Below the pieces are notes generated by a model, which was not told where the DNA came from, made no database searches, and saw nothing but the letters and a program-made list of their open reading frames with translations. DNA of 23,963 bases, from contig CAXHJY010000014.1 in NCBI GenBank assembly GCA_964016885.1, positions 1-23,963 on the forward strand, read 5' to 3'. A program made the position numbers and the translations under genes. The first letter of the stretch is position 1, and every line of letters begins with the position of its first letter. Shown piece by piece: positions 3,650 to 22,948 of the stretch. The stretch comes from Eledone cirrhosa. Its lineage: Eukaryota.

Positions 3650-4168
3650 AAGAGAGTATTGAAGTTTGCTTGAAGCATTGTGGAACAATAAGTAAATATC
3701 TTTAAGTCGTTTGGAAGCCTCGACAATGCAAATGGGTAAATCTCCGGGTAACAAGGTCCGGTGGTGGAGAGAGAGATGTAAGTGGGTGTACGTTGAGATG
3801 CGTGGTGTGTATAAGATGTGTGAGATGTGTAGAATGTGTATTCAAAACAACAAACAGCGAAGGACGCGTTCCGGACTTGTCCGACAGACAACCTTTTCCC
3901 CCACCCCGGAAAAAACCCCCAGTTGATGGATGTGAATCTGAAATATATAGGGACTATTAAATCTCTCCCAAGGTAACTCTCTCTTGTGATGTTATTTTTA
4001 TTTTATCTTTTATACTCTTCCCTTCATTCTACACATCTCACACATCTTATACATACCACGCATCTCAACGTACACCCACTTACATCTCTCTCTCCACCAC
4101 CGAACCTTGTTACCCGGAGATTTACCCATTTGCATTGTCGAGGCTTCCAAACGACTTAAAGATATTTA
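3650..4168. mobile_element. Long inverted repeat element (144-bp arms) between (TA)n tracts
   Basis: 3693-3836 is the reverse complement of 4025-4168 with 2 mismatches; 188-bp spacer containing TTGATGG...GAAATATATAGGG. Confidence 0.75.
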
Positions 4169-5050
4169 TATATATATATATGTACAGACAGACAGATAGA
4201 TAGATAGATAGATAGAAAAATAGATATTTGTCCCTTTAACTCTCAGGGAGAGTCAAAATGACACAGAATGTGACAAGGCTGTCTATATGTCATAATTTAT
4301 GTTTTGTTGAACCTTCGTCGGTTGTGATTCAGACCGTAAAGGGCCGTAACTCTGTGCTGTGAAGCAATACTGCCAATCCACCGCCCTAATAATGAAATAA
4401 TGGAATAATGCAATAAAGAATGAGGAGGTTGTATCCCAGACTTGTAAATTAATCCGTTCCCAAGAAAAAAACATCTTATCTTAACAGAAGAGCGAATTAT
4501 GAACAAACTTCCGGTCACATTTCCTTGTTTACTCCTTCCTCTTCCTCCTCTCTATACCCCCTCCTCCCTATACTCCTCCTCCTCACCATCATCATCATCA
4601 CAGTCCTCTCCCCCCCATACACACCCATACACCCCTCCTCCCCCTCTCCCATCCGCCATCTTACAATGTTGTTAAAATGCTATCCGTTATTTTCGGCGCC
4701 CGTTTCGTTCCGCCCATTACATTTCTGTGTTTAAGATTGACTGACGTTCCAATGTTTCCCTGCCAGGGTCCAGCAGGGTTCACTGGAGAATCATGTGGGA
4801 TGAGGGTGTTTACCGAGACAGAGAAATAAAGAGAGGGTGAGAGAGGGAGAGAAAGAGGGGGAGTTGGACAGAGATATAATGATAGAGGCTGAAGGGGGGG
4901 GGGGGGTAGATCGATAGAGAGAGAGGGAGTGTCCATGTGGTTTCTTGACATGCTTGAAGTAACAGCCAAATCTGACTCAAAATATACCCTACCAGTAATA
5001 GGAGAGAGAGGGGGGAGAGAGAGAGAGAGCGAGAGAGAGAAGGAGATATA

Positions 5051-5172
5051 GACCCCAGTACTGAACTGGTACTTTATTTTATCGACCTCGAAAACGATGA
5101 AAACCAAAGTTGACCCGTCCGTGCGGGATTTGAACTCAGAAGACAGAGCTAGAACAGATGACGAGGCATTCT
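5051..5172 (-). mobile_element. tRNA-derived SINE fragment
   Basis: GACCCCAGTACTGAACTGGTACTTTATTTTATCGACC...GGGATTTGAACTCAG; B-box-like GAGTTCAAATCCC on the minus strand. Confidence 0.8.
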
Positions 5173-5351
5173 TAATAAAAAGGAAGAAATAATAATAATA
5201 ATATAAAGAGTAGAAAGAAGGAAAAACTTACATAACTGCTATCGATTGGCCCGGCTCAGTTATAATTTTTCCCTCTGAAACGATCGTAAAAGAATGTATT
5301 AATTAATTACTTCAACTTGTCTTATTGTTTAATATATATATATATATATAT

Positions 5352-5397
5352 AAATCAACAGAGTACTCGATACTTAGGGTAGTAGAGTACGGTTATA
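5352..5397 (-). mobile_element. Isolated 3' tail fragment of the HHR element family
   Basis: Minus strand GTACTCTACTACCCTAAGTATCGAGTACTC is nearly identical to 21142-21168; (TA)n on both sides. Confidence 0.65.
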
Positions 5398-5742
5398 TTA
5401 TATATATATATAATATATATATATATATATTATATATTTATATATATATATATATGACTCTGTAGCATTGAATACTCTATGACAGAGGTCCTCAAAATAT
5501 ATAACAAAAAGAATGGAATAACAATGAAGTGAATATGTAGAGAAGGTACCGTGAACACGCTCTGCTGGCCAACTACACCACAAACTAGACGAGGTTTAGT
5601 GAGCTGATATCAAGCCAGACCACAACATTATATTTGGAAAGCCACCAATACTAATTATAATATGTTACAGACGTAGTCAAGTGAGAAATGATGTGTCGCT
5701 TTTGTTTCTTATATATATATATATATATATATATATATATAT

Positions 5743-5801
5743 AAAGTAAAAAACAAAAACAATAACAAAGAGTGCAGTACGAAGTGTTGGTATTATATTT
5801 G
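5743..5801 (-). mobile_element. Isolated tail fragment, GTACTGC family
   Basis: Minus strand TTCGTACTGCACTCTTTGTTATTGTTTTTG; island between (TA)n tracts. Confidence 0.45.
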
Positions 5802-6008
5802 TATATATATATATATATATGTGTGGATATATATATATATATATATATATATATATATATATATATATATATATATATATATATATATATATGTGGATAT
5901 ATATATATATATATATATATATATAAATATATATATATATATATATATATATATATATATATATATATATATATATATATATGGATATATATATATATAT
6001 ATATATTA
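5802..6008. repeat. (TA)n tract with recurrent GG interruptions
   Basis: Direct reading. Confidence 0.95.
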
Positions 6009-7304
6009 TAAGACGTTTTCAACCTCCCACCCCAAAAAACATGGTAGAAATTATTTATTTATTTGTTTTTGTTATGAAATGAGAGGAAAGAAAGGGAAAT
6101 CAATCTTGTTTATTGAGAGGGTTGGGGTTACGGCTGGAAGAATGTCTTTTATGACTTATAGCTGAGACTTTCTTTCTCTGCGTCTCTCTCTCTCTGTCCA
6201 CCTGTCTGTTTGTCTCTGTCTCTGTCTGTCTCTCTATCTGTCTGTCTACCTGTCTACCTGTCTCTCTCTCTCTTTCTCCCTCTCTCCCACTCTCCCTCTC
6301 TCTCCACTCTCCCTCTCCCTCTCCCTCTCCCTCTCTCTCTCTGTGTAGCGGATCCATAGACCCTGAAAATGTCTCACCACTTCACTTCCTTATAATTCCC
6401 TCCACACGGTAATAAAACGTGATGGGCAAGGCTGGATTACTTTTGAACGTACGTGAACTTTCTCGATGAAACCCCACCTGTATCTAAACAGACAACAACA
6501 ACAACAACTATAACAACGACAAGTAGAACTAGATTTATTTTAACATTATGTTAATGAATGATTTCTGAAAAGCCCGAGGAGGGGATACACCGTGTCCCCT
6601 CTCTGTTGAGTCAGTCGTTTTATTTCTATTGCTATTGTCTCTTCCTTCAAACTTTAATATATTTAAATGTCTCTATATAGGATTCTCTACCCCCATCGAC
6701 CTCTCTCCCTCCCACAAACACTCTCTCTCTTCCCCACCCCTCTCTTCTTTCTCTTACTCTTTATCTATCTATCTATCTATCTATCTGTTCTTTCTTTCTC
6801 TCTCTCCCACTTCGTCCTCTCTCTCTCTCATTCTCTACCCACTCTCTCTCTCTCTTTATCTTCTCTCACTCTCTCCCTCTGTGCTTCTCTTCCTCAAAAT
6901 TTCCCTTCCCCTCTCATTCCTACAACTTTCCTTCAGTTAAACCACCTCCTCCTCCGTCTCCTCTCAAACTCCATTAGAAATTTCTGTAAATTGAAAGAAA
7001 AGCAGACGATCTTTTCTCTTCGTAAAACTAAAACAAACATTCAAATAAAATATAATACTTCTTCCCCCTCGGGTTGTCTCTATGACTAAAAATGACTGAG
7101 TCAGAAGTTCCAGAGGCTTTTGTTTGGATTCGAACATTTCTCTGCTTCCTCTCTCTCTCTCTCTCTCTTCCTCTCTCTTCTCCCTCATTACTCCCCCCTC
7201 TCTCTCTCTCTGTTCCCCCCTCTCTCTCTCGGTTCATAAATAATAGATTGGAAAATGGAATAAAATATCCCTATAGACGAAAAAACAAAAATATGTGACT
7301 AGCA

Positions 7305-21450: not shown

Positions 21451-21528
21451 AAAAATTTAAAAAAATAAAAATAAATAAACATGAAGCTATAGAACCTTAC
21501 TTCCCTTTTCTAATATATATATATATAT

Positions 21529-21752
21529 CGTTGCTTTCATCCTTCTATGTTGTTTACTTGTCCCACTCGCTTTACGCGATTTACTTGTCCCAATAGCTTT
21601 ATTTAGCTATTGCTCGCACCAACCTGAGGTATATGATTTTTAATGCGATGAAATTACCAATGAAGGTTGGAAAATCACTGACGAAGGACTATTTTTATCA
21701 TATGTAACCCATGTGCAACCACGCAGTATTCTTCTTTCTTCTCATGTTTTAT
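21529..21752. repeat. Arm A' of about 220-bp inverted repeat (partner 20359-20576)
   Basis: Reverse complement of arm A; bounded by (TA)n on both sides. Confidence 0.9.
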
Positions 21753-22012
21753 ATATATATATATATATATATATTAGAAAAGGGAAGTAAGGTTCTATAC
21801 AAAACAGTGGATATAGAGAAAAGGTGAAGTTGAAAATAACACGGAAAATATATTTAAGGGTCTGTTTCTCTTTTTTTATCCTTTCTTTGATTCGTCAAAG
21901 TGACATTATTGAAAAGATAAAAGATAACATTATTGAAAAAAAAAAAAATATATATATATATATATGGAAGCAACGAGAAAAAAGTATGTCTTGTTTCGGG
22001 ATCTAAACACAC

Positions 22013-22080
22013 CACCAGCAATCGAACACAGAACCTTAGCAGCGTGAGACGTACAACCTAACCACAATGCCACGTGTCTT
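22013..22080 (-). mobile_element. tRNA-like/SINE head remnant
   Basis: Minus strand TGGCATTGTGGTTAG (A box)...GTTCGATTGCTGG (B box). Confidence 0.55.
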
Positions 22081-22425
22081 GCCAAATTGTAAGTGTACGA
22101 AATGACACAAAGAACATTTTAGTTTCGATGATATACACAATATAAAGTGGGCCATAAATGTCAAAAACCTATCGAAATGGATGGAAAAATCCAAGTCAAA
22201 GGCTATTAAGATCTGACTCAGTAGAGCAACAATGAAAATTTTATGGCGTCTATCATTGGTGTAGAATTTATTTTATTGTTGTTGTTCAGAAAAGTTAGAG
22301 ACATTGAGAAATATTTTTACAATTTTTACATTACAACCGATTAACGAGTCGTTATTCTGTTCAGTTTATGGCCGCCATGTTTCATGGTCGTCGTTATTTA
22401 AAGAAACATCAGAGTTATGAGAAGA

Positions 22426-22469
22426 CAAGTCACGTGGATCGAAGAATCCAAGTCACGTGGATCGAAGAA
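22426..22469. repeat. 21-bp exact tandem duplication containing CACGTG
   Basis: CAAGTCACGTGGATCGAAGAA at 22426 and 22449. Confidence 0.9.
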
Positions 22470-22790
22470 GACAGAAGACAGAGAATAAGAGGGACTTTAT
22501 GTTGATGTCACAATGTCGAAATCCTTTTAGTCATTTACAACAGAGATCTGCAACAAGTGGGCCATTGAGTGGCGGAGGGTCTCCCTGGCGGCAGTTCGAA
22601 TATTTTATATTTAAAATTAGAAACTAAACTATATAATGCGAAGGCTATACTCTGATGGATTCTCTGTTTTGCCTATATATATATATATATATATATATAT
22701 ATATATATATATATATATATATATATATATATATGTATATATATATATATATATATATATACGCATATATAAATATATATATATATATTT

Positions 22791-22948
22791 ATTAAAATAA
22801 CATTAAGGTGTGAAAGCAGCGATTCTTTGCTTAAACTTTAATCTGTCATTTTAATAAATATTTGCTCTACGGTTCTTATATATTTGATATATATTTATCC
22901 TTATCGAGCCCTCTTTGGATTTTAGTCTTCAAATTTATTATTATTACT
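22791..22948 (+). mobile_element. Decayed HHR-type element between (TA)n tracts
   Basis: Stem I ATTAAAATAACA(22791-802)/TGTCATTTTAAT(22844-55) pairs 11/12. It encloses decayed core positions (TTAAGG...TAAAC...ATC). Followed by AATAAA and a GCTC...GAGCCCTC tail. Confidence 0.45.

Follow-up and report, generated by a model that had tools for sequence, protein, structure and literature searches.

We analysed a window of 23,963 nucleotides (nt) from Eledone cirrhosa (contig CAXHJY010000014.1, positions 1 to 23,963 of the forward strand). The window is microsatellite-rich, animal-type DNA with 97 (TA)n tracts of at least 10 nt, a 5-kilobase (kb) hexamer array and long trinucleotide runs. Between positions 3650 and 22948, the stretches separating the (TA)n tracts are short islands, 19 of which were carried into pairwise comparison. 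The data presented below argue, with good confidence, that the islands are pieces of several high-copy families lodged in TA repeats, and that they are likely retro-copies, truncated on the 5' side, of the 3' end (the pseudo-long terminal repeat, pLTR), with its hammerhead, of a Penelope-like element (PLE) whose enzyme would cut (TA)n. The islands, with the letters used for them and their families, are as follows.

3651-4168, minus strand: island F, with its 3' end at 3651, a 42-nt tail (3651-3692), a direct arm (3693-3836), a 188-nt spacer and a tail-less inverted arm (4025-4168); no valid hammerhead.
5353-5398, minus strand: island G, a tail-only stub of family D (alignment score 52 versus a best of 23 among 200 shuffles).
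5744-5801, minus strand: island I, a short stub resembling the tail of family C, a weak match (score 33 versus a best shuffle of 28).
13524-13578, plus strand: island J, a tail-only stub of family C (score 54 versus a best shuffle of 27).
14359-14563, plus strand: island A, with an inverted arm (14359-14424), a 4-nt centre, a direct arm (14429-14494) and a 69-nt tail to 14563.
14427-14479, plus strand: predicted hammerhead of island A, a complete type I motif with its core at 14434 and a GUA site; a mirror twin lies on the minus strand at 14419.
15241-15354, plus strand: island E, a stub with the 11-mer shared among tails and a putative 3' half-core at 15259, followed by (CA)n, not (TA)n.
20357-20579, minus strand: island M1, a copy of a high-copy family of about 220 nt, identical to M2 at 205/230 positions; no ribozyme assigned.
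20825-21003, plus strand: island B, starting at stem I of a complete type I motif (20825-20902, core at 20836) and continuing into a tail of about 100 nt.
21023-21213, plus strand: island D, with an inverted arm (21023-21075, family sequence to 21079), a direct arm (21080-21132) and a tail to 21213; it has only a putative 3' half-core, at 21094.
21230-21487, minus strand: island C, a 5'-truncated stub with a minimal hammerhead motif (21342-21311).
21529-21749, plus strand: island M2, the second copy of the family of about 220 nt, with a 7-base core-like word at 21678.
21775-21947, minus strand: island O, a high-copy stub with a probable 3' end at 21775, whose last 25 nt recur inverted at 21488-21512 (25/25).
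22789-22947, plus strand: island P, unassigned, a long hairpin in which a putative 3' half-core (22812) lacks any 5' counterpart.

A first-pass annotation of the window, made from its letters alone, had described these islands as unique DNA lying between simple repeats. Their position between TA repeats is real, but they are not unique. Reads from four runs were aligned at 80% likeness to positions 20823-22670, a region that holds six islands; A, E, F and P lie outside it. Single-copy status, which the annotation had named as the outcome that would speak against its own reading, was found for just one of the six. Five were high-copy, with depths in run X1 from 5e4 to 4e6, compared to 5.9 for 21977-22670, which is single-copy and covered by one X1 contig without differences. 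Peak depths were 3.1e5 for B (range 1.2-3.1e5), 4.1e6 for D (13 times that of B), 1.6e5 for C, 3.0e5 for M2 and 5.2e4 for O (range 4-5e4). These values are summed contig depths and overcount, as do the depth ratios of 9e3-7e5 derived from them; they are not copy numbers, and we estimate a copy order of 1e4-1e5. Raw reads of run X8, a restriction site-associated DNA (RAD) library, repeated the contrast, with hundreds to 15,000 reads on the islands versus 0 beyond 22125. Read ends were piled at 20825, 20902, 20982 and 21083 in the RAD data; all four are AATT sites and probably reflect library cuts, not element ends. All five families (B, D, C, M and O) also had read depth in a second organism, and B, D and M in a further one. 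The depth of family C climbed from 3.7e3 to 1.6e5 toward its 3' end, while that of family M, which has the same ends in both window copies, was flat at 2.2-3.0e5 along its length.

Local pairwise alignments of the islands (n=342), with best shuffle scores as control, gave clear links between M1 and M2, J and C, and G and D, and weaker ones between I and C, A and E, A and D, and F and B. The last of these is borderline and consists of the final 13 nt of F, on its 3651 side, which are common to B (20823). The islands therefore represent four or five lineages and not one family. Alignments and read depth together bear out the proposal of the first-pass annotation that (TA)n here hosts multi-copy elements of several lineages, some of which carry type I hammerheads. 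The bias toward (TA)n is seen directly for family D, whose reads enter (TA)n at both termini; for the other families it is judged from the window copies only. Shared tail motifs had also been proposed. An exact 11-mer is common to A, E and D (14510, 15323 and 21157; 3 occurrences versus 0.02 expected, reached in 0/100 shuffles), although the motif was picked post hoc, after the sequences had been inspected. With one mismatch allowed, the excess was not significant (4 versus 1.73 expected; 9/100 shuffles reached it). A tail hairpin conserved among A, D, E and G is not proposed: the pattern was post hoc and was the lowest-energy fold only in G and partly in E.

Full hammerhead cores had been placed at 14427, 20825 and 21311 (minus strand), and a structure-aware scan recovered all three above the level of shuffled sequence. 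The scan required both core halves and three stems, was run at three stringencies over 13,346 non-repeat bases and was compared with 100 dinucleotide shuffles of the same bases. It returned cores at 14434 and 20836 on the plus strand and at 21340 on the minus strand, the mirror twin at 14419 (minus) and, at the loosest setting only, a weak candidate at 23668 (minus). Counts at the three stringencies, which include the mirror twin and, at the loosest setting, the candidate at 23668, were 5, 3 and 2, versus shuffle means of 0.13, 0.01 and 0.00; 0/100 shuffles reached these numbers.

The motif of island A (14427-14479) has a stem I of 7 base pairs (bp), a stem II of 3 bp above a U.U apposition, a stem III of 4 bp and a GUA site, and RNAfold gave a type I hammerhead fold by free energy alone. 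A U.U at the base of stem II occurs in a weakly active axolotl hammerhead (PMC7229834). In island B (20825-20902), the motif has a C at position 4, a stem I of 11 bp including three G.U pairs, a 36-nt stem II region, a stem III of 3 bp and a GUA site; in its lowest-energy fold the core is paired off by the stem II region. Position 7 of this core (20840) varies in reads, as is allowed there, among the 40 of 203 variant rows listed. The motif of island C (21342-21311, minus strand) is of the minimal type with a GUC site and carries marks of the minimal hammerheads of PLEs: an extra base 9/10.1, a G10.1-C11.1 pair and a palindromic 15.2-16.2. Helix I, 4-5 bp long in that type, is just 2 bp in the window copy, and the base 5' of its core differs from 99.7% of the X1 depth. 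The cores lie 130 (A), 168 (B) and 110 nt (C) from the 3' ends. Islands A, B and C carry complete type I hammerhead motifs, in excess of chance.

The four half or decayed cores of the first-pass annotation fared less well. Halves consisting of GAAA, a stem and UH are present at 15259, 21094 and 22812, but as a class such half cores are not above chance and constitute weak evidence: with four pairs required, 19 were observed versus 11.9 expected (8/200 shuffles reached this), and with five pairs 6 versus 3.1 (19/200). The fourth, at 3923, has no support: the 7-base core is mismatched at two positions, and no stem II is convincing. We also discarded a hammerhead in family M. The free position of its 7-base word at 21678 varies in reads; no GAAA lies downstream and no Rfam ribozyme family matched. 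At island P, positions 22787-22860 form a 74-nt hairpin (-17.8 kcal/mol) of hammerhead-like shape that lacks a 5' core and stem II.

Three islands had been said to be paired with inverted, truncated copies of themselves, and all three pairs were confirmed. The arms of A (14359-14424 and 14429-14494) match at 66/66 positions around 4 nt, those of D (21023-21075 and 21080-21132) at 53/53 around 4 nt, and those of F (3693-3836 and 4025-4168) at 142/144, 188 nt apart. In each case the copies are head-to-head with their 3' ends pointing outward into (TA)n, and a tail is present on one arm only, the inverted arm being tail-less. The one-sided tails measure 69 nt in A, 77-81 nt in D and 42 nt in F, versus 30-40 bp in published elements. 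The two arms of D agree at sites where most X8 reads of the family differ (21045, 952/1,199 reads; 21070, 1,233/1,331), which points to one template and one event.

Family D also provided information on where copies end. In the X8 data, 3,237 reads match as far as 21136 and then run into (AT)n, while 3,650 match as far as 21229 before running into (TA)n, although these reads do not separate a tail-less direct copy from an inverted arm. Family D thus has two fixed, TA-bound termini about 77 nt apart, and the inverted arm of the window copy extends to the mirror of 21132, which is 4 nt away from the first terminus. By contrast, the centre of the palindrome is not fixed. Among the 15 joints listed (with 123 further), 10 run from 21066-21079 to differing points in 21133-21188, most of them listed without the sequence in between. 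At 21079/21080, loose ends show that other copies run on into different upstream sequence, and copies extend upstream by a median of 80 nt in 1,756 reads. Because joints vary and other copies continue upstream, the centre of the window copy is not the fixed centre of the family. One X1 record that crosses the D centre with 23 differences was set aside, as it may be a second palindromic copy or a product of forced alignment.

In agreement with the first-pass annotation, no match to a reverse transcriptase (RT) or GIY-YIG domain was found in a Pfam scan of the 145 most complex of 239 six-frame pieces (at least 28 amino acids and not low-complexity). Seven of the 145 had weak matches below the cut-off, none to RT or GIY-YIG. 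The motifs of families D and C were found in 0 viral contigs and 0 of the prokaryote genomes searched, and a metagenome match to a motif was dropped as a single bare 18-mer in unrelated sequence.

Several features of the islands correspond to those of PLEs. Published accounts of these elements describe an inverted truncated copy, a 30-40 bp tail and a (TA)n bias (PMC8557442), palindromes at inverted junctions in head-to-head arrangement, for which a self-priming explanation was offered in rotifer elements (PMC3846280), and minimal hammerheads that for the most part occur singly or as opposite-strand pairs 100-700 bp apart (PMC4209133). Hammerheads in pLTRs, inverted truncated pLTRs and microsatellite targets, the traits on which the first-pass annotation had drawn, are all published for PLEs. 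In the window we find a hammerhead near the 3' end (A, B and C), the head-to-head inverted copy (A, D and F), high copy number in five of six islands with a truncation gradient in C (M being flat) and a (TA)n target.

How such islands might arise can be outlined. A GIY-YIG/RT protein encoded elsewhere would nick (TA)n, and cDNA synthesis would start at one of two RNA sites that bound the tail, either the tail end or the tail start. Synthesis would usually halt after 50-300 nt, often at or inside the hammerhead stems, leaving stubs. The mirror arm would form in the same event and from the same template, either because the opposite strand primes a second cDNA at the tail-less site or through fold-back self-priming. 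We somewhat favour second-strand priming because the arm of D stops near the family-wide terminus. In A and B, no part of the motif upstream of the cut site has been lost, which argues that their templates were uncut there and that cleavage was not needed for insertion; the hammerhead would have been a passenger in both. Comparable behaviour has been described for the Poseidon element PAc of Anolis carolinensis, in which, in vitro, two RT starts bound the tail, both strands are cut at AT-rich DNA and uncut RNA serves as template (PMC11167929). Family D and PAc are alike in the two 3' termini that bound the tail, and the systems also share AT-rich targets and a hammerhead left uncut in inserted copies. 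The PAc starts were mapped with purified protein, whereas those of family D, about 77 nt apart, are inferred from read ends.

Among known systems, the closest are the endonuclease-bearing PLEs (Penelope/Poseidon, Neptune and Hydra; PMC3846280, PMC8557442), which share the head-to-head 5' inverted copy, the junction palindrome, the one-sided tail, strong 5' truncation and the microsatellite target. The window copies differ in having no open reading frame (ORF) and, in A and D, tails of 69-81 nt compared to 30-40 bp; assignment to a clade would need the protein. Metazoan pLTR hammerheads of type I (PMC4209133) resemble those found here in the minimal marks of C, in the occurrence of single motifs or opposite-strand pairs and in their wide diversity within a genome. 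They differ from the predicted motifs of the window, given the 2-bp stem I of C, the 4-bp stem III and U.U of A, and the C at position 4 and 36-nt stem II region of B. Naiad elements (PMC8557442) share the (TA)n preference, and some carry only half a core, its partner lying 35-50 nt away, an arrangement that family D might have. However, Naiads, with their N-terminal endonuclease order, lack the canonical hammerheads present in A, B and C. Non-LTR retrozymes (PMC7229834; bioRxiv 10.64898/2026.07.22.740005) are likewise short, non-coding and PLE-related with a type I hammerhead, but what defines them is a head-to-tail array of units, each 150-450 bp long, together with circular RNAs. In the window, copies are single or head-to-head only: no two hammerhead units stand head-to-tail in it, and tandem arrays of the retrozyme type were absent.

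Several observations weigh against truncated PLE copies as the source of the islands. A check with the Rfam hammerhead models, which the annotation had recommended, gave no hammerhead in the window (among the 150 of 156 matches listed) or in three sub-regions; the matches were microRNA-type hairpins and TA artefacts, and none was a twister. No parent ORF was tied to any family, and nothing related came out of the viral, prokaryote and metagenome scans. Family D is the most abundant, and the annotation had counted it as a hammerhead carrier through its half core at 21094; however, it lacks a 5' core over the 30 letters of upstream sequence available for its subfamilies, which reach about 35-45 nt from the GAAA, and its GAAA can also occupy a plain hairpin loop. 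The tails of A and D are about twice the published length, the depth gradient of C could also reflect subfamily divergence, and the pattern of family M does not look like random truncation. The read evidence is that of 20823-22670, with A, E, F and P outside. Finally, non-element DNA beside TA is mirrored as well: positions 20743-20778 and 21966-22003, non-repetitive DNA (depth 2-27) flanking the TA tracts, match in inverted orientation at 34/38 positions, so some fold-backs need no element.

The alternative that survives best, although we hold it to be possible and not probable, is that some families (D, M and perhaps A and B) are true non-autonomous mini-elements, transcribed from short masters and moved in trans by a Penelope-like protein, instead of being cut down from a full-length parent. 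This does not exclude the retro-copy origin for other islands and fits M and D best. A and B start within 2-4 nt of stem I of their hammerheads, the ends of M are identical twice and its depth is flat, D is far deeper than B in X1, and non-autonomous PLE derivatives have been described (PMC8557442; bioRxiv 10.64898/2026.07.22.740005). However, D copies extend upstream with varying joints, C shows a depth gradient, and the 69 tandem repeats listed for the window include no array of hammerhead units. A stronger form of this idea, which we consider doubtful, is that family D propagates itself as a Penelope-derived mini-element specific for (TA)n. It would number perhaps 1e5 copies and have two RT starts about 77 nt apart; the 11-mer that it shares with A, E and G would serve the RT as a tail signal, and its hammerhead would be split or widely spaced.

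We regard as unlikely the view that the inverted arms arose when breaks in self-complementary (TA)n were repaired by a general fold-back process, and not during insertion of an element. Such repair appears to be real for three TA-centred mirrors here: the non-repetitive flank (34/38), the last 25 nt of O (25/25) and interruptions within TA tracts. The flank mirror suggests fold-back synthesis at a broken (TA)n, with five islands later filling the tract between. The interruptions, in otherwise pure TA tracts, are mirrored at 13628-13671 and 13908-13951 (within 13245-14100) and at 14679-14723, 14872-14916 and 15001-15045 (within 14564-15090). However, these mirrors are centred on TA, whereas in A, D and F the mirror centre lies within the element and the 3' ends face outward, and the D arm stops at the family-wide, TA-bound terminus. 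Least probable by far is that the palindromic islands are TA-targeting miniature inverted-repeat transposable elements or foldback DNA transposons with incidental hammerhead words: they are perfect hairpins flanked by TA at very high copy number, and Rfam sees only hairpin-type matches, but we saw neither a fixed structure nor inverted repeats at both termini: the repeats are non-terminal, with a 42-81 nt tail outside on one side only, joints differ from copy to copy, there are tail-only stubs (5353 and 13524), and the hammerhead motifs are in excess of chance.

The window holds further features. The 5-kb array (8167-13177) consists of two hexamers one base apart in irregular order, with one strand G-rich, and a 72-bp minisatellite occupies 1972-2679 (9.8 copies, 97% matches). 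Long runs of (AAC/AGC)n at 15523-16177 and (GATGGT)n at 16319-16576 give rise to spurious poly-Q/N/S and poly-GD frames. A non-repeat island at 14120-14308, 3' of (GA)n, has no link to the other islands. Fragments of a family resembling short interspersed nuclear elements lie at 622-720, 1389-1445, 5055-5170, 18000-18125 and 20600-20720, some adjoining TA tracts; they seem to be of octopus type. Two near-repeats of about 60 nt at 18230-18420 appear to resemble the 3' end of an RTE-type long interspersed nuclear element, and broken frames at 16580-17300 appear to resemble the C-terminal portion of a non-LTR retrotransposon protein of the R4/Dong type; four pieces of these frames had no match when scanned against Pfam.

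A literature text search with five short motifs from the window gave no match, and, among the papers listed for octopus or cephalopod together with Penelope and hammerheads, microsatellites or pLTRs, none was on such stubs. For O. vulgaris, 190 PLE families making up 6.83% of the assembly are recorded (PMC13282606, supplement); hammerheads in them came up neither in that supplement nor in our literature searches. Each trait described here, and their combination, is already in print (PMC4209133, PMC3846280, PMC8557442, PMC11167929), and the interpretation of the first-pass annotation was largely right but not new in kind. What differs, modestly, is the long tails, the position-4 variant and a possible, very abundant half-core family. 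The families look undescribed yet may already be catalogued.

Collectively, these data add families to a known class and indicate that a large share of the TA microsatellites of this animal host Penelope-type stubs. Their most useful aspect is mechanistic. According to the literature, how inverted pLTRs originate is an open question (PMC8557442, PMC3846280); family D, with its two fixed 3' termini and its very large collection of natural junctions, could be used to address it. If family D were indeed a mini-element, its many independent inversion joints would make it possible to tell, within a single genome, whether inverted pLTRs stem from twin priming or from self-priming.

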